The notes beneath the pieces were generated by a model. That model was not told where the DNA came from, made no database searches, and saw only the letters and a list, made by a program, of their open reading frames with translations. Positions 5,887 to 19,709 of a DNA stretch of 20,000 nt are shown piece by piece. Position 1 is the stretch's first letter; each line of letters opens with the position of its first letter. The position numbers and the translations under genes are program-made. Source of the stretch: an uncultured virus (IMG/VR IMGVR_UViG_3300031974_001836) (Duplodnaviria > Heunggongvirae > Uroviricota > Caudoviricetes); IMG/VR virus record IMGVR_UViG_3300031974_001836; one strand, written 5' to 3'.

Positions 5887-5894
5887 TATTTATA
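5887..5894 (-). promoter_or_regulatory. T4-type late promoter TATAAATA
   Basis: Exact consensus on the minus strand, intergenic, about 37 nt upstream of the ATG at 5850. Confidence 0.85.
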
Positions 5895-7194: not shown

Positions 7195-7202
7195 TATTTA
7201 TA
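7195..7202 (-). promoter_or_regulatory. T4-type late promoter TATAAATA inside an inverted repeat
   Basis: Exact consensus, intergenic. Repeat arms are 7168-7183 and 7197-7213. Confidence 0.85.
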
Positions 7203-7228: not shown

Positions 7229-7936
7229 TTATTCTGAAGAGATGTCTTCTAAGACCATCTCACGGAAGTCTGCAGATGCTTCCGACCAGTCGAACACATA
7301 AGAAACTGTAACTCTCCACTCATCTTCTGAAGATGCAGCGTGATACAGTACATTCTCTGGTTCGTTGTATGGTCCAAAGTATGCAGCCTTACAAGTCCAT
7401 TGCCCTGGTTTGTCCTGACAACGAATCACCTCTTTAGTTTCTGGGTGAATATAGTCGAACCAACCTGTGCCGTTCTCTGTGTAAGAGAAGACTAGGTTGT
7501 AGCCTGGTGCATTGGCATTGTTGTGCCATGAGATAAATCCACCCGGTGGGTAGATTGCCGCAAGTGCGTTGTGCTTAACTGACAAGAAGTTCATCATCTT
7601 GGCATTAAGATCACGCAACATGTGCGTGAAGTCACGTTTGAATACTGGATCGGCATCTTTCTCAAAGATCATGTGAGACTTTTCTGATAGTTTAAAGTTG
7701 TAACCTACCATCTCATCTGGGAAACCTTCGTGCTTAGTGCCCTGATTGACAATCTCCTGCATGTACTTCTCACCAACGTAGTATGGACGTTGACGTTTGT
7801 GTTGCGCAGAATTTAGGTGCACGTTCTCTTTGAATCCCGCAATGGTATGCAACTTTGCGTACTGGTTTAGAATCTCAAGCAGCTCTGGATTTTTGACATC
7901 CACGTGCTTCAGATATTTGTCGTTTACCTGTGTCAT
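7229..7936 (-). CDS. Putative 2OG-Fe(II) oxygenase-like (double-stranded beta-helix) protein
   Basis: 235 aa with YPPGGFISWHNN...LYHAASSEDEWRVTVSY, matching the Y..G....H.x...H.......R layout. It has HxN where HxD is canonical. Confidence 0.6.
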   Translation of the reverse strand: MTQVNDKYLKHVDVKNPELLEILNQYAKLHTIAGFKENVHLNSAQHKRQRPYYVGEKYMQEIVNQGTKHEGFPDEMVGYNFKLSEKSHMIFEKDADPVFKRDFTHMLRDLNAKMMNFLSVKHNALAAIYPPGGFISWHNNANAPGYNLVFSYTENGTGWFDYIHPETKEVIRCQDKPGQWTCKAAYFGPYNEPENVLYHAASSEDEWRVTVSYVFDWSEASADFREMVLEDISSE

Positions 7937-8670
7937 ACGATTGGTTTATCCTTGTTAAGACCAGCAGAGAAGTGTCGTAAGATCACTGGCCCTGTGTCTG
8001 GTTTTGTTATTGCCCAATTAAGTGCGTTATAGTAGTTCCACCTTAGATCGTCATCAAAGATTCCAACCTTAAGGTCTTTGTACTTTTCCTCTTTCTCTAC
8101 TAACCACCAGAGTGAGAACTGGTCCCAAGACTTGAGACTATCAGCATATCCCTCTGGCCACCATGTATCATTCATCTGTCTGTATGTCAAATCCCACCAG
8201 TCTTGCATGAACTCACGCACGATTGGTTTGGTCATATCATATAGACAGACACCACCACATAGTGTGAACTTAGAAACACCCTCTGGGGTGTCGAAGTCAC
8301 GTTCTGCGTAGATGTAATCACGATCATCTGTTAACGCAGAAAAAACCATGTCATGGTCTTTCATTTCATCCCAAACTTTAACGATGTCTTCGTGTTCGCA
8401 TTCCATGTCTGCGTCGATGTACATCGTTAGATCATATGGAGATTTTGCCATGCCCCATAATTTGGCACGGTAGTGGTCGTCACAAAAGATAATATCATCT
8501 GCTACATCTCTGCCACGGTCATCTAAGAACTGCTCTTCGGTGACTAGGCAAATCTTACATTCATCTTCCGGTTCGTAAAAGTCTCGGATCGACTCTGCTA
8601 GATTGATTGCATACAGATAAAAATTGCGTTTCTTCGACGCAACGATAACAAAACCTTTACTCTTTTCCAT
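7933..8670 (-). CDS. Putative GT-A fold glycosyltransferase (nucleotide-diphospho-sugar transferase / GT8-like)
   Basis: 245 aa with K...M..SPYD.TMYIDAD (DxD motif), CGGVCLY, WDQ, WN and a C-terminal ILRHF. Overlaps both neighbouring genes. Confidence 0.75.
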   Translation of the reverse strand: MEKSKGFVIVASKKRNFYLYAINLAESIRDFYEPEDECKICLVTEEQFLDDRGRDVADDIIFCDDHYRAKLWGMAKSPYDLTMYIDADMECEHEDIVKVWDEMKDHDMVFSALTDDRDYIYAERDFDTPEGVSKFTLCGGVCLYDMTKPIVREFMQDWWDLTYRQMNDTWWPEGYADSLKSWDQFSLWWLVEKEEKYKDLKVGIFDDDLRWNYYNALNWAITKPDTGPVILRHFSAGLNKDKPIV

Positions 8671-9116
8671 TACTCGGCCTCTAGTTGTTCTTGCAGAATC
8701 ATGATCGAGTACATATCGACTTCGATCTTAGATTTGGCACGACGTAGTTTTGCCTTTAGTTTGCGGTTCTTAGAGTTCTTGATTTCATCCACCTCAAATG
8801 CTTCCAACTTGTAGTTAAATAACTTCTCAAGTTTTCGTGCTTTGTTGTGTTCTTCCTCACGAATTTTATCTTCTTCTGCTTCTGCCTTTTTGCGTTCGAC
8901 TCGATCAGTAGTTTCTTGATCGATTCGTTCTTCACCTAAAGCCTCGACAACCTCATTAAACAGTTCGTTTTCATTGCCATCTTTATCATGCCGACGCAGA
9001 AACATTTGTTGATGCGTTACACGACCAACATCATCTTCAAGTTCTAGGATACAGTTCAGTTCTTTCTTTTCGTCTGTTTCCCAGAACGCATTATCCATCC
9101 ATTGTTTACGACTCAT
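8670..9116 (-). CDS. Hypothetical protein, charged and helical C-terminal half (148 aa)
   Basis: ATG at 9116 has a GGAG RBS 6 nt upstream, so it is preferred over the TTG at 9128. Its stop overlaps the glycosyltransferase start. Confidence 0.75.
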   Translation of the reverse strand: MSRKQWMDNAFWETDEKKELNCILELEDDVGRVTHQQMFLRRHDKDGNENELFNEVVEALGEERIDQETTDRVERKKAEAEEDKIREEEHNKARKLEKLFNYKLEAFEVDEIKNSKNRKLKAKLRRAKSKIEVDMYSIMILQEQLEAE

Positions 9117-9159
9117 TAATATCTCCAAAGAGTTCAGTTCAATTCAACTGTATATATGC

Positions 9160-9190
9160 AAAAAATAGTGGGGCAGAAATCCACCCCACT
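9160..9190 (-). terminator. Rho-independent terminator after the 1571-aa fibre gene
   Basis: Minus strand reads AGTGGGGTGG-ATTT-CTGCCCCACT-ATTTTTT: a 10-bp stem with 2 G-U pairs followed by a U tract. Confidence 0.85.
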
Positions 9191-9196
9191 TTGCAT

Positions 9197-9225
9197 ATTA
9201 TACCATAAGGATTGCTATTATGCAA
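9197..9225 (-). promoter_or_regulatory. Sigma70-like promoter TTGCAT-17 nt-TATAAT with extended -10 (TGG-TATAAT)
   Basis: -35 at 9225-9220, overlapping the last codons of the fibre gene. -10 at 9202-9197. Spacer is 17 nt. Confidence 0.6.
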
Positions 9226-12200
9226 CCCTCACATATAGTGTATAGGTATCAGTAACGTGTGTTAGTGTATCACTGATCGTTGCACCTACGTAGTTACCTA
9301 GGAACGATCTTGAGTAGTTACCCACGAAGTCACGAGCATAGTTGCCCTCAAATCCACGTGTGTAGTTACCAGTGAAATCACCTACGTATGTAGAAACACG
9401 GTCACGTGAGTATGCACCACTGTATGCAGACGTACGGATACGAGCATAAGCAGATACACGGACACGTGCATAGTTACCTACGAAGTCACGAGAGTAAGTA
9501 CCAGTGTACTCACCGACGAATCCACGTGCGTAGTTACCCACGAAGTCACCGACAAAGTCACGAGCATATGCACCCGTGTACTCACCAGTAAATGTACGTG
9601 CGTAGTTACCTACGAAGTCACCAGCAAATTCACGTGTGTACTGACCAGAGAACGTACGTGCATAGTTACCAGTAAAGGTGCGGTTATATGCACCAGTGTA
9701 TTCACCAACGAATCCACGTGAGTAGTTGCCTACGTAATCACCAGCAAACTGACGTGAGTAAGTGCCTGAGTATGCCCCAGTGTATTCACCAACGAATGTG
9801 CGGTTGTAAGCACCAGTGTACTGACCAGAGAATCCACGTGAGTAGTTACCGACGTAGTTTCCACCGAAGTCACGAGTGTAGTTACCTACGTAATCACCAG
9901 CAAAGTTACCGACGAAATCACCGATGAAGTTACCTGCGAAGTTACGTGAGTAGTTACCTGTGAAGTCACGAGCATAGTTACCAGCAAAGTCACCTGCAAA
10001 GTTAGTTACACGATCACGTGTGTATGCAGAAGAACGGTTGCGGACATATGCCGATACACGAGTACGTGCGTAAGCAGAGTAACGTGTGCGTGTTGATGTG
10101 CGAGTGTACTCACCAGTAAAGTTACCAGCAAAGTCACCAGCAAAACCACGTGCATAGTTACCTACGAAGTCACCAGCAAAACCACGAGAGTAGTTACCGA
10201 TGAAGTTACCAGCAAAGTTAGTTACTCGATCTCTAGTGAAGTCACCAACGTAGTTGGTTACACGAGTACGAGCATATGCTGAACTACGGCTTCTGGTTGA
10301 AGTACGTGTGCTGTTACGTGTGTATTCACCAATGAAGTTACCTGCGAAGTTTGTTACACGGTTACGTGTGAAGTCACCAACATAGTTAGTGATACGAGTA
10401 CGTGCATAAGCAGAGTAACGTACACGAGTTGAAGTACGGACACTGTTACGAGTGTAGTTGCCTACAAAGTTACCAGCAAAGTTTGTAACACGGTTACGAG
10501 TAAAGTCACCAACGTAGTTAGTGATGCGAGTACGTGCGTATGCTGAATAACGAGTACGGGTTGAAGTGCGAGTAGATGTACGTGCGTAGTTTCCTACGTA
10601 ATCACCTGTGTAGTAACCAGTACGTACGTAGTTTCCTACGAAGTCACCTGCATAGTAACCAGTACGTGTGTAGTAACCAGTGTTGGTTGACGTACGGGTT
10701 GACGTACGAGCATAGTTGCCTTCATAAGAAGCACCACGAGTACGTGCATAGTTACCTTCATAAGAAGCACCACGAGTACGTGAGTAGTCACCGACATATG
10801 ATGCGGCACGAGTACGTGTGTATGCTACTGTACCTACGTAATCACCAGCAAAGTTACCAACGTAGTTTCCGGTGTAGGATGCACCACGACTACGAGTGTA
10901 TGCTACGTTACGGGTATAGTTGGTTGCACGAGTACGTTGATAGTTTACGGTACCTACGTAATCACCAGCAAAGTTACCTACGTAATCACCAGTATAAGTT
11001 GCGGCACGGTTACGAGTATAGTTTTGTGACCACTCACCAATGAAGTCACCTGTGAAGTCACCTGCGTAGTTTGCAGTACCGACGAAGTTACCAGTATAAC
11101 TTGAAGTTCCTGTCCATGATAGACCATATCTCCATTCCGCACCATATGATACACGGAATGTACCTCTTGAATACCATACACCGTTCTTCTGTACAGAAGT
11201 TGTACCTGAAGTACCAGAAGCAAATCCAACATATACTCCGTCAGCATAGAGCATGATACCTTGCATCTCGTAGTCATATACCCACTGGGTGACGTTTGCA
11301 ACGTATACGTCAGTGTTGGTCTGAGTGCCAGTAGAGGTACGTGTTGACGTAACTGAACGAGAATAGTTGACAATTGAGTTACGAGTCGAGTTAGTAGCAC
11401 CACCACGTGAGTAGTCACCTGTATAGGATGCCGCACGACTACGAGTGTAGTTAGTTGCACGAGTACGAGTAAAGTTGGTCTGACGTGTGTAATCACCTAA
11501 GAAGTTACCAGTGTATCCTACTGTACGAGAGTAGTTACCAGTATAGGTGGCTGCACGTGTACGAGTATAATCTGTTGCACGAGTACGAGTAAAGTTGGTC
11601 TGACGTGTGTAGTTACCGACATACGATGCCGCACGAGTACGTGCATAGTTACCGACATACGATGCCGCACGGTTACGTGCATAGTTACCAACATACGATG
11701 CGGCACGAGTACGTGCATAGTTACCTACGAAGTCACCTGCGTAGTATAAAGTACGAGTATATGCTAGTACACGAGTCGATGTACGTGTTGACGTACGAGT
11801 GTAATCTAGTACACGAGTCGACGTACGTACAGAGGTACGTGCGTAGTTGCCTACAAAGTCACCTGCGTAGTTGCCAGCAAACCCACGTGCGTAGTTACCA
11901 ACAAAATCTCCGGTAAACGTAGTAGCATAGTTGCCTACGAAATCACCAGCAAAGTTAGTTACACGATCACGGGTATAGTTACCAGTAAAGTCACCTGTAT
12001 AGTTTCCTGTGAATCCACGTGCGTAGTTACCTACGAAGTCACCAGTAAAGGTTGTCGCATAGTTACCTACGAAGTCTCCCGCAAAGTTAGTGACACGATC
12101 ACGAGCATAGTTACCAATGAAGTCACCAGCAAAGTTGCCAGCAAACGCACGTGCATAGTTACCAACAAAATCTCCAACGAAATCACGGGCATAGTTGCCA

Positions 12201-13933
12201 ATGAAGTTGCCAGCATAGTTGGTTACACGATCACGAGTATATGCTGAGTAACGAGTACGTGTTGACGTACGAGCATAAGCACTGTAACGAGTACGAGTAG
12301 ATGTACGTGTTGATACACGAGCATAGTTACCGACATAGTTGCCAGCAAACCCACGTGAGTAGTTGCCTACAAAGTTACGTGCATAGTTACCTTGGAAACT
12401 GCGTGAGTAGTTACCAACGAAGTTACCAGCAAAGTTTGTAACACGGTTACGAGTATATGATGATACACGAACACGTGAGTAGATGCCAGCAAAGTTAGTG
12501 ACACGATCACGAGTGTAGTTAGTTACACGAGTGCGGACGTAGTTATCAGAATAAGCAGAAACACGAGTACGAGTGTAAGTGCCTGCGTATGCTGAAACAC
12601 GGTTACGTGAATAAGTACCTGCGTATGCAGAGACACGGTTACGTGAGTAAGTTCCTGCATAGGTACCAGTATAAGACGACACACGAGTACGAGTGTAGTT
12701 AGCAGAGTATGCAGAACTACGTGTACGTGAGTATGTGCCTGAGTAAGATGATACACGACCACGAGTGTACGAAGATGCACGGCTGCGTGAGAATGTACCA
12801 GTAAAGTTTGTTACACGGTTACGAGTGTATGTTGATACACGTGCTCGTGTATAAGTTCCAGCAAAGTATCCAGTGAATGCTGTTAGACGTGTACGTGAGT
12901 AAGTCGACGTACGAGTCCTTGAGTAAACACCTGAGTATGCAGAACCACGAGTACGAGAATAGTTACCCTCGAAACCACGTGTGTAGTTTCCTGTGAAGTC
13001 ACGTGAGTATGTGCCCGTGTAATCACCTACGAAAGTACGTGAGAAAGTATTGACACTATTACGTGTATATGAGGAAACACGATTTCTTGAGTAAGCAGAA
13101 ACACGAGTTGTTACATACGATGATGGGCGTGTGCGAGTATAACTCTGATCCACGATCGTACGACGTGTGTTTGTTGCTGAACCCTTTGCCATCCAAGTAC
13201 CTGCAGATGTAGGTACACCTTGTGTATCAGAACGTAATTGATACGAACCGATAGCACCAGCAGTGGCACGTAGAGTTTTTGCACGTTGACCAAGTGTGTA
13301 CTTGATCTGTGCGTCTGTCATTTCTTTAAATCCGTCGACAGAAGAACCATCATAGACAGTTGCAACTGGACGAACAACATCATAAGTAGTTGCACTTAAT
13401 GATGTCTTTTTCCAAATATGGTAGTTTACAGTAGTGCCGTCTCCATGAGTATCTGTAAATACATTCTCAATATGGATACTCCAATCTAAGCCTGGAGATG
13501 TTTGAGATAGACGGAAGGATCCTTGATATTCTAATCCCGCAACGTCTTTCATGACACGTTCTGTAAGTAGGTCTAAGTCCCCGTCGTTCATTTCATAGAA
13601 ACCAGGGTTAGGCCCCACGTCATAGTATCCTACTGGACGGGCAAAATCTGCACCGGACTCATCTGCTGATCCACCCACTTGCTTAAGAGCAGTAGTTGTT
13701 GTGGTACCAGTGATCTGAGATGCAGGGTGTGTCCCTGCTGGTTCGTTGTAGTACGTATCTACGAAGGAACCAATATTCACACTTCCGGTTAAACTGATAT
13801 TACCGATATCACTAGCAGTGGCCTCTGCTAATGCTTCTCCAACCTTAATGGCAAGATATGCTTCTTCTGCCGGTTGGAATTCCTGTAGGTCACCATCATT
13901 AATGATTTTTAGTGGTATACTAGATGCTGACAC
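9218..13933 (-). CDS. Giant Arg/Tyr/Gly/Thr tetrapeptide-repeat fibre protein with mirror-symmetric arms (1571 aa)
   Basis: GTG start with a GAGAG RBS and a late promoter upstream. Architecture is 264-aa base + 606-aa arm + 75-aa tip + 606-aa arm + 20-aa tail, which sums to 1571. Confidence 0.9.
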   Translation of the reverse strand: MSASSIPLKIINDGDLQEFQPAEEAYLAIKVGEALAEATASDIGNISLTGSVNIGSFVDTYYNEPAGTHPASQITGTTTTTALKQVGGSADESGADFARPVGYYDVGPNPGFYEMNDGDLDLLTERVMKDVAGLEYQGSFRLSQTSPGLDWSIHIENVFTDTHGDGTTVNYHIWKKTSLSATTYDVVRPVATVYDGSSVDGFKEMTDAQIKYTLGQRAKTLRATAGAIGSYQLRSDTQGVPTSAGTWMAKGSATNTRRTIVDQSYTRTRPSSYVTTRVSAYSRNRVSSYTRNSVNTFSRTFVGDYTGTYSRDFTGNYTRGFEGNYSRTRGSAYSGVYSRTRTSTYSRTRLTAFTGYFAGTYTRARVSTYTRNRVTNFTGTFSRSRASSYTRGRVSSYSGTYSRTRSSAYSANYTRTRVSSYTGTYAGTYSRNRVSAYAGTYSRNRVSAYAGTYTRTRVSAYSDNYVRTRVTNYTRDRVTNFAGIYSRVRVSSYTRNRVTNFAGNFVGNYSRSFQGNYARNFVGNYSRGFAGNYVGNYARVSTRTSTRTRYSAYARTSTRTRYSAYTRDRVTNYAGNFIGNYARDFVGDFVGNYARAFAGNFAGDFIGNYARDRVTNFAGDFVGNYATTFTGDFVGNYARGFTGNYTGDFTGNYTRDRVTNFAGDFVGNYATTFTGDFVGNYARGFAGNYAGDFVGNYARTSVRTSTRVLDYTRTSTRTSTRVLAYTRTLYYAGDFVGNYARTRAASYVGNYARNRAASYVGNYARTRAASYVGNYTRQTNFTRTRATDYTRTRAATYTGNYSRTVGYTGNFLGDYTRQTNFTRTRATNYTRSRAASYTGDYSRGGATNSTRNSIVNYSRSVTSTRTSTGTQTNTDVYVANVTQWVYDYEMQGIMLYADGVYVGFASGTSGTTSVQKNGVWYSRGTFRVSYGAEWRYGLSWTGTSSYTGNFVGTANYAGDFTGDFIGEWSQNYTRNRAATYTGDYVGNFAGDYVGTVNYQRTRATNYTRNVAYTRSRGASYTGNYVGNFAGDYVGTVAYTRTRAASYVGDYSRTRGASYEGNYARTRGASYEGNYARTSTRTSTNTGYYTRTGYYAGDFVGNYVRTGYYTGDYVGNYARTSTRTSTRTRYSAYARTRITNYVGDFTRNRVTNFAGNFVGNYTRNSVRTSTRVRYSAYARTRITNYVGDFTRNRVTNFAGNFIGEYTRNSTRTSTRSRSSAYARTRVTNYVGDFTRDRVTNFAGNFIGNYSRGFAGDFVGNYARGFAGDFAGNFTGEYTRTSTRTRYSAYARTRVSAYVRNRSSAYTRDRVTNFAGDFAGNYARDFTGNYSRNFAGNFIGDFVGNFAGDYVGNYTRDFGGNYVGNYSRGFSGQYTGAYNRTFVGEYTGAYSGTYSRQFAGDYVGNYSRGFVGEYTGAYNRTFTGNYARTFSGQYTREFAGDFVGNYARTFTGEYTGAYARDFVGDFVGNYARGFVGEYTGTYSRDFVGNYARVRVSAYARIRTSAYSGAYSRDRVSTYVGDFTGNYTRGFEGNYARDFVGNYSRSFLGNYVGATISDTLTHVTDTYTLYVRVA
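9281..11098 (-). repeat. Returning tetrapeptide-repeat arm (aa 946-1551)
   Basis: 148 tetrads plus 7 dipeptide skips, in mirror order to the outgoing arm. Confidence 0.9.
11324..13141 (-). repeat. Outgoing tetrapeptide-repeat arm (aa 265-870)
   Basis: 148 tetrads of types YxRx, F/YxGx, RxS/T/Ax and SxRx, plus 7 dipeptide skips. Confidence 0.9.
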
Positions 13934-13983: not shown

Positions 13984-13991
13984 TATTTATA
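13984..13991 (-). promoter_or_regulatory. T4-type late promoter TATAAATA
   Basis: Exact consensus, intergenic, about 50 nt upstream of the GTG at 13933. Confidence 0.85.
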
Positions 13992-14010: not shown

Positions 14011-14490
14011 TTAACTTTTTTGAGGCCAGACCACTTCCTGTACAGAAGTAACACCATCTAGGTGGTCGGTGATATCTCTTAACTGCTGCCGGTAGTTTCT
14101 CCATGACTGCAACTCTTGCTCAGATAGAGGAGCATCAAGTGCTTGAGTCCAGTCACAAGCAGTGAGTAATTGGTCTCGAATCATACGAACATCTCTAACC
14201 AAATCTTCGTGGTTCCATGTCCAATCTAAAGACTCGAAGTTCCACGTTGCATGCTTGTTTGGTGGTAACCCTGTGAATTTAAAGGTTTTTGTTGATGCAT
14301 CAAACCAGTGATAATCCATGAAGTAGGACAAGTCACTGCATCCTGCAGGAAGACTATCCTCATGAACATAGATAATACGTTGAGAACCATCGGGAGTAAA
14401 CCCCTCTGAATCAATCTTCACTTGCGGAAGAGAGATCCTTTCTAGTCTTCCTGTCTGCGTATTAGCATATACAACATAGCATAATTTCAT
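14011..14490 (-). CDS. Phage tail (fibre) assembly chaperone
   Basis: C-terminal R..RD.LL..CDWTQ..D.PL......W..YRQ.LRDIT......V.WP signature. Lies directly after a fibre gene. Confidence 0.85.
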   Translation of the reverse strand: MKLCYVVYANTQTGRLERISLPQVKIDSEGFTPDGSQRIIYVHEDSLPAGCSDLSYFMDYHWFDASTKTFKFTGLPPNKHATWNFESLDWTWNHEDLVRDVRMIRDQLLTACDWTQALDAPLSEQELQSWRNYRQQLRDITDHLDGVTSVQEVVWPQKS

Positions 14491-14491
14491 T

Positions 14492-17400
14492 TTAACTTCT
14501 CGTTACTTGATAATAGGTCATAATAGGTCCACCAGAGTAGTCTGTCTCGATGTAATTTCCACGAGTATATGTGAATCCACCAGTTGTTATTGTAGTATCA
14601 TTTTCACTCTGACCTGATAGTGGTTCAGAAAAATACACTTCAGTCCCATTCCATCGAATCTGTATCGTCACAAGATCTTCACCTTCTGGACTAGGAACAA
14701 GTGATACTCTCCACCAAGTGCCAGAGTTAGACGTATCTGTCGTCTGAGGTGGTGGTTCTGAGTTGACATCTGACGAAGTAGGTGCTACCGAAACCGGAGT
14801 AGTTACCAAATAACTACCTGCTGTGATCCATTGACTACCATTGAACACTTTTATATCATAGGTATATGATGTCCCATTAGGTGGGATCTCATTTACCGTG
14901 AAGTTATTTAGACCACTTGTTACTGTAACATCTGTTAAAATGAGAGCATTATCACGATAAACTCTCAACGACACAGGAGTAGACCCCTCTGTCAAATGTG
15001 TTACTGACAGTTGATGTGTTGTGTCATTTTCCGGATGCACTATTCGATTAGAGGTTGTGGCAAAAATACCCGAATCATTATCATATAACGTGAACTCTTT
15101 CTCCGCAAGAACCTCAACGTTGCTACTACCCATTGGTTCGTTGATACTGGAAGTGTCATTCCCAGTACGTAACTGTGCCCTGAAGGTTTCTCCTTGCCAT
15201 CCCATTTCTCCAACACCGGCTGATACTGTACTGGTTCGTGTATAGTTGCCTATGAACTCACCCGTATAATACGTCTTGGCACCATCGGAGTATGAAGAGG
15301 TTCTAGTTCTTATAAAGTCTCTAGTTGAGGTTCTAGTAGAATTCCTTGTCGATGGTACATAATTCGCATAGTTCCCCAAGTAACTTGGTGTCCTCACATA
15401 ACTGCGTGAATCTGTAAAGTCACGTGTATAGTTACCTGTAAAGTTACCAGTGTACTCTCCAATAAAGGACAACACCCTACTGAAAGCAGTGACTCTTATA
15501 TCGGTTCGAGAACTAACACGTGTGTAGTAAGAGATCGGATATCTACTATATGAGTCTACAATGTTGCGACTATAATTACCTTCGTAGTTACCTTCATACG
15601 ATGGAGATCTGCTATACGTTCCTGTATAGTCACCTATGAAATCTCCAACAAATGATCTCTGATAGTTGCCCTCAAAATTACCACCGAAGTCTCGATTATA
15701 GTTTCCGGTGAATGTACCAGCATAGGAGAACACGGACTCTCGTACACGAGTTGACGTACGACTAGACGTTCGTTGATAGTTAACCGCATGATTCTCTACA
15801 CTACCTTCTATGATGACTTGTCGAGTAGACGCACCTACATAATCTCCCGTATAGATGCGAGTATAAATTCCAGTTCTCTCATAGTTACCCGTATACTGAC
15901 CAGCAAAGTTTCTGTTATAAGTTCCTGTGTATTCCGATACAAATCCTCTTTCATAATTGCCTAAGAAACCTGGTGTGTATGTGCTAACTCGGTTTTTAAG
16001 ATATGTGCTGTATCTGGTAACAACCCTTCCACTTGTCTTGGTTGATATTCGAGAGTTCTCTCCCACGAAATTACGTGTATAATATCCAAATATCTCGACC
16101 ATACCACCCGCATCGGGATCGAATATAAATCGACTAGAAACTTTTGTGACGTTGCCGACAAAGGATCGAGTGTAATTTCCAAAATAACTTCTACTATAGT
16201 CCCCATTATAAGCACGACCATAATTACCAATATAGGTAAGAGTACCTGTATATGAAGAGACTCTATTTCTAGTAGAACTACCTCCCACCGATCTAATCCG
16301 TTGATAGTTACCTATAAAGTCTCGGGTATAATTGCCTACAAAGTTTTGACTAGCAGTTGGTGTGCTTGTACTGGTGTTTTCTGCTATTTTATAATCTTCA
16401 ACAAATGTAGTGGCAGTTTGAAGTGTCCCTCTATGATAATATTTACCTCCTACAGGACCGACAATGGATGATACTCTTGCATCAGCCATACTATCGTATG
16501 CACTACTGGTGTAAACGAGTGTTCCATTGTAGTATAATTGAATAAAGTATTCGTACGTAATATCTCCTCTACCGTCACCAAATCCACCTTCTACGAATCG
16601 AGCAAGTCTCCATACGTATTGAGGATTACCATTAGTGATAGAATATAAGAACGGATCAGACCCACTACCACTGACTCTGGTTCGTTCGTAGGTAGAGGTT
16701 CTAGTTCTCTCGTAGTTGCCTTCGTACGAAGCATTTCCCGTAAAATTACCCACAAACGTACGAGAGTAAGTTGAGGTTCTTGAGTAGTTCCCCTCAAAGT
16801 TGCGAGAGTAATTACCGACAAACGTACGAGAGTATCCCCCTTCATATGACTCGACACGTGTACGTGTATAGTCTACCAGATTTGCGTACGAAGACGTTCT
16901 GGTTCGAGCAAACTCACCAGTATAAGTAATCGTTCTGGTGTAGTTACCTACGAAACCACGTTGATAGTTACCAACAAACGTTCGGGTGCTCTCTGTCCCA
17001 CCCCTAGTTCGAGTGTATGCGGAGATTCGAGTTCGAGCATAAGTTCCGTCGTATGTGGACAGTCTTGCTCTCGTTGAGATTCTTTGATACGGCACTTGTC
17101 GGGTAGATGTTATCGAGTATCGATAACGGCCATAATTTACCTGTGGAACGTAATCCCCTATGAAGTTGCCCAGAAAATTTCCAGTGTAGGTTAGAGTTCG
17201 AGTAAAGTCGAATGGTCTTTGTCTTTGATAAGACGATACTCGTGTTCGACTTGATACTCGATTATACGCAGAAAGTCTCGTGCGTGTAGACGTACGAGTA
17301 AATGTCTTCGACGTTGACAACTCTGGTATTCGAGTTCTAGTGTAATTACCAGCGTAGTTAGACGGACGGTTTCGTTGATACGTCTCGGTATATGTACCTG

Positions 17401-18895
17401 GTCTATAGGTTATCTCAAGTCTACCTTCTGGGTCATTCGGTATAGGATTCCAGTTGTAGTAGATGGTGCCCGTATAAAATCTTGAGTAGTTACCCTCGAA
17501 TGATAACCCGTCTGAGTAATTACGTTCGAATGTACTCGTACGTGTACTATTCCTTGTCGACAGTCGAGTGTATAGACCTTCATAGTCAACTGTTCTTACA
17601 TAGTCACCCGTGTACCCTATTGTCCTTGTGCTTGTTCTAGTATAAGTGCTAAGACGGGTATAGTCTCCGGTAAAGTCTCCGGTATAGTACCCTATTGTAT
17701 TACCAATAAAGTCACGGTTGAATCCTGTTGCAATATCAACGATTGACTGTCTGGTAAACGACCCTGTTCTTTCAATGGTTACATTATATGATGTAGTGTC
17801 ATTATAAGAGACAAACGTTGCTGTATGCGCAGACCCCGTAAATGTAGAAAAGTTTGCAGTAAAGTCTTTCTGTGCTACACCGTCTGACCCTGAGAGTCTG
17901 AATAATTTAACGTGATAATTGTTAGGTTCGTTAGTCGTTGCTATTAGACTAATCGATTGTCCTTCAATTATATTATCGACACTAGAGAATTGCAATGCTC
18001 CCTGTAGACTAGATTCCTCTTCGTTTTGTTGACTAGTTCCTGAAGAAGACCCTTCTAGTTTGGCCGCAAACAATGCGTTCAGGTTCCTGAAGTTTTGATA
18101 TATTTCTTGTAGACCTGACTCATCATAGTTAATTAAGATAGAGTCGTAATACCGAACCTGTGTAGTGCTGAACCCCAGTCCGTACAGATTAGTTGTAATT
18201 TGGTTGTCTTGAAAAGCACCACTAATAGCACCGGATAAAGACCATTCAATATTAATATAGCATCCAGCACTATGATTTAAAAACGGGTTGCCTAAGACGG
18301 TCCAGTTCTGACTTGGTGGTAGATAGGTTTCAATATTAAAAATATTATTGGTGATAAGTGCTCTGGAATCAAAAGCAATTCTACCCTGTGATGTCTTTAT
18401 CTGTAGACCATATTCATCGTCGTTTAACGCAGATGAATTTTCTATAATCTCTGCTGTCTCACGGACAATAAAGTAGTCCATGTCCACATCCCAATCAGCA
18501 GTCACATAGGTCTGGTTTAAATATCCACCATTGGTAAGTCCACGACCTTTGAATCTGTAGGTATTGCTTAGTGCATCACTTGCCGTTCGTGCTAGGAAAA
18601 ACACTTCAGGGTTTGAGATAGTAACGTCTTGCGTAGTCCCATTAAAATTGGTAATTGCGTCGGGTACAACTATTGGACCAAATCCGGTTCCAGTTAAATC
18701 TGGATTGTATCCGGTTGCGGTTGGACGTTTTACAAAGACAAAGTCTTCTTTGGTGAGTTCGGAATCTAAGGTAAACGAATGCCCACGACCTGCTGCTACA
18801 ACTCTGTAGTTAAGAAGATCGAGAGTAGTATCGGCAATAATGAAATTGTTACCGTTGCCGTCATTGCCTTGTACCTTTAGACCGTAGGTCATCAT
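14492..18895 (-). CDS. Second tetrapeptide-repeat fibre protein (1467 aa)
   Basis: N-terminal YGL.[VI]...G...[FA]D[ST] motif occurs twice. A Calx-beta-like domain is split by an approximately 860-aa repeat insertion that has a central domain. An Ig/FN3-like domain, a P/S/T linker and a C-terminal domain follow. ATGA overlap with the upstream stop. Confidence 0.88.
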   Translation of the reverse strand: MMTYGLKVQGNDGNGNNFIIADTTLDLLNYRVVAAGRGHSFTLDSELTKEDFVFVKRPTATGYNPDLTGTGFGPIVVPDAITNFNGTTQDVTISNPEVFFLARTASDALSNTYRFKGRGLTNGGYLNQTYVTADWDVDMDYFIVRETAEIIENSSALNDDEYGLQIKTSQGRIAFDSRALITNNIFNIETYLPPSQNWTVLGNPFLNHSAGCYINIEWSLSGAISGAFQDNQITTNLYGLGFSTTQVRYYDSILINYDESGLQEIYQNFRNLNALFAAKLEGSSSGTSQQNEEESSLQGALQFSSVDNIIEGQSISLIATTNEPNNYHVKLFRLSGSDGVAQKDFTANFSTFTGSAHTATFVSYNDTTSYNVTIERTGSFTRQSIVDIATGFNRDFIGNTIGYYTGDFTGDYTRLSTYTRTSTRTIGYTGDYVRTVDYEGLYTRLSTRNSTRTSTFERNYSDGLSFEGNYSRFYTGTIYYNWNPIPNDPEGRLEITYRPGTYTETYQRNRPSNYAGNYTRTRIPELSTSKTFTRTSTRTRLSAYNRVSSRTRVSSYQRQRPFDFTRTLTYTGNFLGNFIGDYVPQVNYGRYRYSITSTRQVPYQRISTRARLSTYDGTYARTRISAYTRTRGGTESTRTFVGNYQRGFVGNYTRTITYTGEFARTRTSSYANLVDYTRTRVESYEGGYSRTFVGNYSRNFEGNYSRTSTYSRTFVGNFTGNASYEGNYERTRTSTYERTRVSGSGSDPFLYSITNGNPQYVWRLARFVEGGFGDGRGDITYEYFIQLYYNGTLVYTSSAYDSMADARVSSIVGPVGGKYYHRGTLQTATTFVEDYKIAENTSTSTPTASQNFVGNYTRDFIGNYQRIRSVGGSSTRNRVSSYTGTLTYIGNYGRAYNGDYSRSYFGNYTRSFVGNVTKVSSRFIFDPDAGGMVEIFGYYTRNFVGENSRISTKTSGRVVTRYSTYLKNRVSTYTPGFLGNYERGFVSEYTGTYNRNFAGQYTGNYERTGIYTRIYTGDYVGASTRQVIIEGSVENHAVNYQRTSSRTSTRVRESVFSYAGTFTGNYNRDFGGNFEGNYQRSFVGDFIGDYTGTYSRSPSYEGNYEGNYSRNIVDSYSRYPISYYTRVSSRTDIRVTAFSRVLSFIGEYTGNFTGNYTRDFTDSRSYVRTPSYLGNYANYVPSTRNSTRTSTRDFIRTRTSSYSDGAKTYYTGEFIGNYTRTSTVSAGVGEMGWQGETFRAQLRTGNDTSSINEPMGSSNVEVLAEKEFTLYDNDSGIFATTSNRIVHPENDTTHQLSVTHLTEGSTPVSLRVYRDNALILTDVTVTSGLNNFTVNEIPPNGTSYTYDIKVFNGSQWITAGSYLVTTPVSVAPTSSDVNSEPPPQTTDTSNSGTWWRVSLVPSPEGEDLVTIQIRWNGTEVYFSEPLSGQSENDTTITTGGFTYTRGNYIETDYSGGPIMTYYQVTRS

Positions 18896-19304: not shown

Positions 19305-19709
19305 CTATGGTTTAGGTGGCCAAACAACTGACTCCAAATCAGAATAGTCTTGTGTGATATCACGAAGTGTTTGTCTGTACACGCTCCATTCTTCTCGTTG
19401 ACCGTCACTCAGACCATTGTCATCTAACCTAGTCCAGTCACATTCCTGAAGTTTAGTATTACGTGCCTGACGCAATTCTTCTATTTCGATCTGTGCGATA
19501 ACATCATCTGGATAAGGTGCTACAATTTGTGCTACAATATCATCAGATTCAATGTATTTGTTCAGAACAATTGCTCGTGTAGCATCATACTCTTCTTGCC
19601 ACGGAATAAAAAGTTTCCATGCTTCTGGTGATGGTACCACATTATTGGGAAAGGATTGAGGAGAACCCACTGGAATACCGTTATGTACTTTTATAAACTG
19701 TATGCTCAT
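19305..19709 (-). CDS. Phage tail (fibre) assembly chaperone, paralogue of 14011..14490
   Basis: Contains LRQARNTKLQECDWTRLDD..LS..QREEWSVYRQTLRDITQ.......VVWPPKP. AGGA RBS. Confidence 0.85.
   Translation of the reverse strand: MSIQFIKVHNGIPVGSPQSFPNNVVPSPEAWKLFIPWQEEYDATRAIVLNKYIESDDIVAQIVAPYPDDVIAQIEIEELRQARNTKLQECDWTRLDDNGLSDGQREEWSVYRQTLRDITQDYSDLESVVWPPKP

Follow-up and report, generated by a model that had tools for sequence, protein, structure and literature searches.

In the needle of the phage T4 protein gp37, the chain extends to a head at the distal end and then returns, forming antiparallel strands (Bartual et al. 2010, as cited in the relevant passage of PMC9659904). MABP (MVB12-associated beta-prism) domains, as the part of PMC2881412 devoted to them has it, are type I beta-prisms made of three homologous segments with internal threefold symmetry. 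The name has been given to domains of Photorhabdus MACPF and of MPEG1 (PMC2881412 and PMC6753088), and the passage on the MPEG1 domain calls one of its prism hairpins "extraordinarily elongated" (PMC6753088). Here, we analyze a 20,000-nucleotide stretch of DNA from an uncultured virus of the Caudoviricetes (IMG/VR record IMGVR_UViG_3300031974_001836; hereafter the window), the minus strand of which encodes a repetitive protein of 1571 amino acids (aa) that invites comparison with both (Table 1). This protein is very likely a fold-back fiber of an uncultured marine T4-like phage, with a base that consists of residues 1 to 256 together with the last ~15 residues. We are highly confident of the topology as such, in which the base would be closed by the protein's own C terminus and the insert of ~1300 residues, made of two 616-residue arms and a 68-residue tip, would be a giant self-paired hairpin. 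The computational evidence comprises repeats in the base, a closing strand, co-occurrence of base and tail, a single register between the arms, paired insertions and deletions (indels), and replacement of the tip.

The original prediction, made from the letters of the window, held that the base domain at the N terminus is internally repeated, with a weaker first copy, that a giant hairpin takes the place of a short turn in the last repeat, and that the extreme C terminus returns to complete the fold. The segment concerned (positions 13142 to 13933, minus strand) corresponds to codons 1 to 264 of the open reading frame (ORF). The motifs on which the proposal was built were located at residues 7 (PLKII), 81 (TALKQ), 99 (RPVGYYD), 172 (HIWKK), 188 (RPVATVYD), 252 (SATNT), and 1562 (DTYTLYVR), and relatives start at the same MSASSIPLKI. 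Residues 1 to 256 indeed form three tandem copies of a unit of ~90 residues. By BLASTP, copy 2 (aa 95 to 180) matched copy 3 (aa 184 to 262) with an E value of 7e-5, and copy 1 matched copies 2 and 3 with E values of 0.032 and 0.040, respectively. When the three column blocks of the base alignment, built from 95 complete family members, were compared by hhalign, copies 2 and 3 aligned over 63 columns with a score of 46.5 (P = 5.8e-9) versus 9.9 ± 2.6 (maximum, 20.3) for 30 column-shuffled controls. Copies 1 and 2 aligned over 70 columns with a score of 22.5 (P = 9e-4) versus 9.4 ± 2.1 (maximum, 15.2) for the column-shuffled controls. The consensus landmarks common to all copies are P-x-x-hydrophobic, G-x-x-E-M, a helix, I-G-x-Y-x-L, [FA]-T-D-T, a turn, and Y-x-[IL]-Y. 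Likewise, AlphaFold2 (AF2) models of two relatives show the same order of elements, strand-strand-helix-strand-strand-strand, in all three copies, so that the proposed threefold repeat with its weaker first member is borne out.

The copies differ in how their last two strands are joined. In copy 1, the last hairpin has a conserved 13-residue turn, NEPAGTHPASQIT, and in copy 2, the turn consists of 5 to 6 residues (HGDGT). The N-terminal part of copy 3, which contains a tryptophan (W247) that is invariant across the family, ends with the strand GTWMAKGSATNT, and from there arm 1 leaves. The equivalents of the last two strands in copy 3 lie 1307 residues apart, from T256 to Y1564, which agrees with the idea of a giant hairpin in the place of HGDGT. 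Addition of the last 14 residues of the protein to copy 3 gave an hhalign score of 56.7 against copy 2 (P = 8.6e-11) in an alignment of 78 columns that spans the join. With 30 order-shuffled tails, the score was 46.2 ± 1.0 (maximum, 48.7), and with the reversed tail, it was 45.8. Taken alone, the tail matched in hhalign exactly the last strand of copy 2 (columns 70 to 84, P = 0.006) and exactly that of copy 1 (columns 72 to 83, P = 0.045), both matches being short and weak by themselves. The weakness of the former match, which covers 15 columns, and the presence of a chaperone gene directly upstream might be taken to mean that the ETYTLYVR tail is an independent element, for instance, a chaperone or assembly signal, that its likeness to blade 2 is coincidental, and that the base is an incomplete three-repeat domain. 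We regard this as extremely improbable, however, given that the gain of 10 score units depends on the native order and on placement as an extension of copy 3, that base and tail covary in register and antiparallel, that the tail is modeled with a predicted local distance difference test score (pLDDT) of 80 to 98 in two relatives, and that the base Trp and the tail Leu mark the exact end of the arm register. The data support the assignment of the last ~15 residues of the tail as the closing strand of base repeat 3.

The covariation analysis used mutual information with average-product correction on 212 sequences (effective number, 145). Eight of the 10 strongest base-tail pairs fell on the antiparallel diagonal with position sums (i+j) of 1810 to 1820, where 0.40 were expected (P = 3e-10), as did 15 of the top 40 (1.6 expected). 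The same procedure recovered the hairpins of copy 2 (sums of 325 to 333) and copy 1 (sums of 135 to 140). In addition, the covarying pairs (66,164) and (163,258) connect the turns of the three copies, a pattern that a side-by-side arrangement of the three hairpins would predict. Because relatedness among sequences inflates such scores, we treat covariation as support for the arrangement rather than as proof.

Base and tail also travel together. Among 1.84 billion representatives searched, the base was found in 355 clusters at an E value of ≤1e-3, with identities of 35 to 70%. The tail motif ..ETYTLYVR.A ends 117 of the 155 family proteins that we collected, the homologue in Phage C48C1 (see below) being set aside; most of those without the motif appear to be fragments that break off within the base or the arms. 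In 80 IMG/VR loci, where closed stop-to-stop ORFs were examined, base and tail resided in one ORF in 130 of 131 cases (97 of the 130 being unique), and a two-gene form was not seen. Base-only ORFs numbered 17, of which 16 run off the contig; the remaining one is in locus L039, where a base-only ORF (8986 to 11430, 815 aa) and a tail-only ORF (11396 to 12499, 368 aa) overlap at their ends in different frames. This split looks like a frameshift or a sequencing error, not a two-gene form. In 50 of the 80 loci (all within L029 to L108), two base-plus-tail family genes lie within ~9 kb; the window has one.

The insert between base and tail measured 126 to 1824 aa (median, 558) in the 130 closed ORFs, none of which had a plain turn in its place. 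Short homologues of ~290 aa, which the original prediction had anticipated, did not turn up in the data searched, in which the shortest complete members have 397 to 404 aa. The base matches of 92 to 300 aa considered for this role, which stop within the base or where arm 1 begins, were rejected as apparent fragments, as was P0013, a candidate mini form.

The two arms appear complementary in composition and in register. Between the two arms, both Gly-rich and Arg/Ser/Thr-rich stretches are anticorrelated in mirror order (Gly r = -0.79 in the window protein), and in the family the mean Gly correlation was -0.208 versus -0.025 ± 0.019 for permuted partners. At i+j = 1813, the arms can be paired without any gap, giving 609 arm pairs with no Arg-Arg and 78 Arg-Gly combinations, whereas the nine other registers listed in the aromatic ranking contain 20 to 29 Arg-Arg pairs each. 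The 166 Arg residues of the arms face Gly (78), Phe (43), Ser (25), Tyr (10), and others (10), and 54 Tyr-Tyr pairs are formed. The aromatics keep to one parity of the sequence, with 104 of 108 in arm 1 and 117 of 123 in the other arm. One face holds 27% Arg, 23% Tyr, 21% Gly, and 13% Phe, and the other holds 26% Thr, 17% Asn, 16% Ala, and 13% Val. In 1232 arm residues, there is no His, Cys, or Lys, and there is one Pro. The sum of 1813 equals exactly that of W247 and L1566; therefore, the base strand and the tail lead straight into this register. Of 27 ORFs of close relatives in IMG/VR, 11 run off their contigs; in each of the 16 complete ones (850 to 2101 aa), the best of 81 offsets was 0 (12 ORFs) or +1 (4 ORFs) from the corresponding anchor sum.

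Changes in arm length respect the mirror as well. In the orthologue L003 (1595 aa), the base is 92 to 98% identical (about 95%), the tail is 100% identical, and most of the arms are 84 to 96% identical to those of the window protein. The identity falls to 28 to 48% around the tip and is about 30% in the tip itself. L003 has 16-aa deletions at 607 to 622 and 1189 to 1204 (the mirror of the first being 1191 to 1206), 12-aa insertions after 807 and after 1009 (mirror, 1006), and 10-aa insertions after 844 and after 970 (mirror, 969). All six arm indels in this pair of proteins are strictly mirror paired, as are both of those between L008 and L021. In the window protein, arm 1 has three 44-aa units (aa 565 to 696; DNA positions 11844 to 12241) that face three units of arm 2 (aa 1117 to 1248; DNA positions 10184 to 10567) unit by unit, each arm containing a threefold tandem array of 132 nucleotides (nt), and the sequence RDRVTNFAGNF within the unit pairs with its own copy on the opposite arm. 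At the DNA level, there are degenerate direct repeats, in multiples of 12 nt, and no inverted repeats of at least 40 nt; therefore, the mirror is a property of the protein.

With the tail motif, the co-occurrence in one ORF, the pLDDT values of the tail, the covariation diagonal, and an arm register equal to the sum of the Trp and the Leu, the predicted return of the C terminus to the base is well supported. Phage fibers are usually oligomers, and conceivably, the base could be closed in trans, with arm 1 pairing with arm 2 of another chain in a domain-swapped dimer or trimer and the C-terminal strand completing blade 3 of a neighbor. The mirror register, the paired indels, the covariation, and the co-occurrence fit pairing between chains and within one chain equally well, and a pLDDT of ~30 for the arms in monomeric AF2 models is what would be expected if partner chains were needed. 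In the short members of the family, however, pairing of the arms extends to a tight turn in the center that, with its few residues, would be unable to bridge two separate ribbons; this favors pairing within one chain. AF2, although given no other option, also closes the base confidently within one chain. We hold closure in trans to be quite improbable.

Structural evidence came from AF2 models of P0042 (404 aa) and P0011 (711 aa), the latter being the closest foldable relative, with a base that is 69% identical. In P0042, the base blocks had pLDDT values of 85 to 98 and the last 25 residues 83 to 98, with residues 267 to 378 below 50; in P0011, the values were 81 to 98 for the base blocks and 80 to 98 for the last 31 residues. 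The elements of P0042 were located at 4 to 8, 13 to 16, 22 to 34 (helix), 51 to 61, and 75 to 84 in copy 1; at 100 to 102, 107 to 109, 112 to 128 (helix), 135 to 138, 146 to 157, and 163 to 171 in copy 2; and at 183 to 189, 192 to 198, 201 to 216 (helix), and 226 to 230 in copy 3, followed by two long strands at 242 to 270 and, from the C-terminal end of the protein, 372 to 402. P0011 has corresponding long strands at 251 to 282 and 675 to 709, the ends of which give sums of 957 to 960, in agreement with the sum of W251 and L706 (957). We place the C-terminal strand beside the strand of copy 3, as it is the sole strand of matching length, the end sums agree, and the prism alignments described below span residues 40 to 404.

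In an exhaustive structural alignment, the P0042 model resembled the C-terminal domain of Mpf2Ba1 (Z = 7.0; 121 residues; root mean square deviation, 3.7), the C-terminal domain of Plu-MACPF (Z = 6.8; 116 residues), the MABP domain of MVB12B (Z = 6.0; 114 of 152 residues), and the P2 domain of perforin-2 (Z = 4.9); the next chain, which is unrelated, reached a Z value of 2.9. The MABP-type structures matched were 8b6v_A, 2qp2_A, 3tow_A, 6sb1_A, and 6u2w_A. The MVB12B entry is titled as an MABP domain, and the domain of Mpf2Ba1 would, from its architecture, be one as well. On the level of sequence, the 1571-aa protein belongs to no Pfam (E ≤ 0.01), PHROG, or NCBIfam family. The base yielded only a noise-level Gln-synt_N match (0.11) in Pfam at an E value of ≤1, a PDB profile search gave nothing below an E value of 0.036, and no match of the base to the MABP family was seen in Pfam, NCBIfam, or the PDB profiles. 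The base, which the original prediction described as an unrelated scaffold, does have a likeness, in that the model resembles MABP-type beta-prisms. With middling Z values and no sequence match, we claim a resemblance of fold and logic rather than membership in the MABP family.

Several observations speak against the arrangement as we describe it. The structural evidence derives from models of relatives, P0042 and P0011, computed with family alignments, and the pairing of tail and base was read from strand lengths, pLDDT values, and aligned ranges (40 to 404) rather than from coordinates. In both models, the arms have a pLDDT of ~30, so that the ribbon itself is absent from them, and a monomer model has, by construction, no way to close the base other than within one chain. 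The four beta-prism Z values all lie below 8, and a Foldseek comparison of the model with PDB and BFVD gave nothing at an E value of ≤0.001. Inside the base, the equivalence with the hairpin of blade 2 leads to a register of ~1817, not 1813; possibly, there is a bulge or a small shift at the stem of the hairpin. In the wider family, the expected register was found in only 40 of 94 members (best offset +1 in 36 and 0 in 4), the others having Arg-poor repeat types that the simple score reads badly. Strict mirror pairs of equal length accounted for 32 of 95 arm indels (≥3 aa) in ten pairwise alignments, and ambiguity of alignment fragments the indels in divergent pairs. Finally, large insertions of a binding type occur in the base loops of relatives, which implies that the base is exposed and may itself bind something.

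This last point bears on the polarity of the fiber. The usual pattern in phage fibers is a conserved anchor and a variable receptor-binding end. Following a similar reasoning, we lean toward the conserved base as the virion-proximal anchor and the variable tip as the host-binding end, a view held with some confidence, although with less than that in the topology. The reverse, in which a beta-prism base would bind ligands at the distal end and attachment to the virion would be through the tip or the arms, is conceivable because beta-prisms are ligand binders, as are the inserted lectin-type domains. For MABP beta-prisms, lipid binding through a hairpin is described in the passage of PMC6753088 on this activity. 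Furthermore, ten relatives have ~100 to 260 extra residues in or beside the last hairpin of copy 1, at the site equivalent to that of the giant insert, and inserts were found in the first hairpin of copy 2 in two relatives and of copy 3 in three. One of these is the metagenomic relative P0003, in which a 675-residue insertion in the first hairpin of base repeat 3 (residues 197 to 872) comprises a Laminin_G_3 domain (E = 2.5e-23), i.e., a ConA-like lectin domain, and eight FG-GAP repeats (E = 3.6e-90). In contrast, the base is the conserved end of the protein throughout the 355 clusters, and tip replacement is seen between proteins that share 95% identity in the base, which makes the reverse polarity unlikely in our judgment.

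The protein is most likely organized as follows. Three blades of ~90 residues would each end in a hairpin formed by the last two strands, and the three hairpins would pack as a pseudo-threefold beta-prism resembling MABP domains, with a turn of 13 residues in blade 1, 5 to 6 residues in blade 2, and ~1300 residues in blade 3. The arms would be beta-type repeats with alternating faces, antiparallel to each other in one gap-free register that continues from the base strands, with one face placing Tyr across from Tyr and Arg across from Gly, Phe, or Ser and the other carrying Thr, Asn, Ala, and Val. The chain would run out, turn at the variable tip, and pair back all the way, and the returning last strand would close blade 3. 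Physically, the arms may form a long two-stranded ribbon of ~200 nm if fully extended, a two-faced shaft that carries the tip as an exchangeable host-binding end. The length of this shaft probably evolves through gain and loss of units on both arms together. Going further, one may imagine a fiber made of a single polypeptide, the three-bladed base of which imitates in one chain the threefold root of trimeric fibers and mounts one ~200-nm two-stranded ribbon on the baseplate. Its register would be locked by a pairing code (Arg opposite Gly/Phe/Ser and Tyr opposite Tyr) as base pairing locks an RNA stem, and length and tip would be changed by paired gain and loss of units and by tip replacement, with the anchor untouched. 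We offer this last picture as a speculation that is more likely wrong than right.

Table 1. Features of the gene for the putative fold-back fiber and its immediate surroundings (positions in the window)
Feature	Position	Strand	Basis
Whole gene, 1571-aa fold-back fiber-like protein	9218..13933	minus	ORF list and translation; GTG start at 13933, stop codon at 9218-9220
Base repeat 1 (aa 1-94), weakest copy	13652..13933	minus	hhalign versus copy 2, AF2 strand order, covariation
Base repeat 2 (aa 95-183), complete reference copy	13385..13651	minus	BLASTP and hhalign versus copy 3, covarying hairpin
Base repeat 3, N-terminal part (aa 184-256)	13166..13384	minus	BLASTP, hhalign
Arm 1 (aa 257-872), period-4/8 repeats, aromatic at every 4th/8th position	11318..13165	minus	Gap-free pairing with arm 2
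Tip domain (aa 873-940), 68 residues	11114..11317	minus	Centered on mirror point 906.5 = 1813/2
Arm 2 (aa 941-1549), return arm complementary to arm 1	9287..11113	minus	Arm pairing, paired indels in L003
C-terminal tail (aa 1550-1571, GATISDTLTHVTDTYTLYVRVA)	9221..9286	minus	Family conservation, hhalign, AF2 models of relatives, covariation
Upstream neighbor, 159-aa protein with tail-fiber-assembly chaperone domain	14011..14490	minus	PF16778 (E = 5.7e-16), PHROG 4912 "tail fiber assembly" (2e-16)
TATAAATA, late-promoter-like site 50 nt upstream of the start codon	13984..13991	minus	Motif match

The window represents a tail fiber module read on the minus strand. The gene for the 1571-aa protein is adjoined by the PF16778 chaperone gene upstream and is followed downstream by genes for an LtfC-like protein, a fiber-like protein, and a coiled fiber protein of >1812 aa. 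The gene order is the same in the C48C1 record, where a "tail assembly chaperone" occupies the equivalent place and baseplate wedge genes adjoin. In the wider family, a recognizable chaperone was found upstream of only 23 of 173 genes by a search that detects close relatives only. The site TATAAATA, which we take to be the T4 late-promoter consensus, occurs at 5887 to 5894, 7195 to 7202, and 13984 to 13991, in all cases on the minus (coding) strand and 29 to 50 nt upstream of gene starts (5850, 7166, and 13933). Three sites compare with 0.76 expected, and 7 of 200 shuffled sequences reached this number; the sites are probably T4-type late promoters.

A second PF16778 chaperone gene is present at 19305 to 19709 on the minus strand (E = 2.3e-16) and is paralogous to the one at 14011 to 14490; each of the two stands upstream of a gene for a giant repeat protein. 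The second giant protein (1467 aa; 14492 to 18895, minus strand) contains similar GNY/RTR-type repeats and is globular at its ends and in a central domain. Scored in the same way, it showed no single mirror register free of gaps, neither flank matched Calx-beta, the case with which the original prediction had compared the insertion, at an E value of ≤1, and its middle domain matched the tip of the 1571-aa protein with an E value of 0.25 only. Inside the fiber module, two genes with overlapping ends, at 7933 to 8670 (245 aa) and 7229 to 7936 (235 aa), both on the minus strand, belong to no family; the 245-aa protein shows a weak hint of glycosyltransferase-2 (E = 0.015), below the cutoff.

Among 50,697 phage records searched by megablast and tblastn with two different queries, only Phage C48C1 matched, and no cultured phage in this set carries the gene. 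The C48C1 homologue (L001, 12001 to 22044) has 3347 aa, a base that is 66% identical, and the same tail, and it belongs to no Pfam family at an E value of ≤0.001. Its return arm contains several extra globular domains. The translation also shows, by eye, an apparent exact tandem duplication of a stretch beginning KTRHRSYLYYSTDTS, which may be a recent event or an assembly artifact. A prokaryote genome collection contained two family loci only, both on contigs of metagenome-assembled genomes, and matches in the ESM Atlas were restricted to unnamed viral clusters (scores of 0.82 to 0.83).

A T4-type major capsid gene was found in four of five related records (G002 to G006). The capsid of one relative is nearest to that of C48C1 (73%), which is filed under Kyanoviridae; the next matches, at 61 to 65%, are to Stenotrophomonas, Pelagibacter, Methylophilales, and Synechococcus phages. 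To our knowledge, psbA is near universal in cyanomyoviruses. It was found in none of the five records, one of which is a complete 149-kb genome with terminal repeats. Possibly, these "Kyanoviridae-like" phages do not infect cyanobacteria.

In the literature covered, which did not extend to papers in subscription journals, we found no published description of the family or of its design, and "C48C1" appears in no relevant paper. A paper on "tentaclin" (PMC10743442) was considered and is, in the part bearing on this question, unrelated. If our interpretation is correct, the family represents a new way to build a phage fiber, with a shaft of up to ~1800 residues grown from a single beta-turn in a small domain, the two ends of the chain at one place, and a self-complementary sequence code in the shaft that can be read. 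It would explain how abundant uncultured marine T4-like phages vary the length and the tip of a fiber independently of its anchor, and it would provide an architecture for the giant repeat ORFs of marine viromes, hundreds of which are unannotated and lack a family assignment. Given that natural mini versions of ~400 residues exist, the design would be directly testable. Likewise, the arms, as a long, two-faced, cysteine-free, and proline-poor beta-ribbon, might serve as a model for register control in beta structures.

In conclusion, the 1571-aa protein can be compared with two known systems and departs from both. Like MABP domains, its base has three homologous internal segments, with hhalign scores far above those of shuffled controls, whereas the likeness of the P0042 model to the prism is middling; as in the MABP domain of MPEG1, one hairpin is lengthened, in this case that of blade 3. 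Unlike in MABP domains, each blade adds an N-terminal beta-hairpin and a helix, the lengthened hairpin measures 126 to 1824 residues rather than tens and bears a tip domain, and the context is a phage fiber module rather than a pore-forming or ESCRT protein. The likeness to the gp37 needle lies in a chain that goes out and back in antiparallel fashion in a T4-like phage, gp37 needing a dedicated chaperone. Evidence for an antiparallel return is provided here by the absence of Arg-Arg among the 609 arm pairs, the anchor sum in all 16 complete close relatives, and the paired indels. No similarity to gp37 was found in Pfam, PHROG, or PDB-profile searches. The needle of gp37 has an iron-histidine core; as there is no His in the arms, such a core cannot be present in the protein described here. 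Furthermore, the gp37 needle, a six-stranded structure formed by a homotrimer, takes up only ~200 residues at the C terminus of a trimer that is conventionally anchored by its N terminus, whereas in the 1571-aa protein, the whole shaft of ~1230 residues would fold back, with both termini residing in one base domain.

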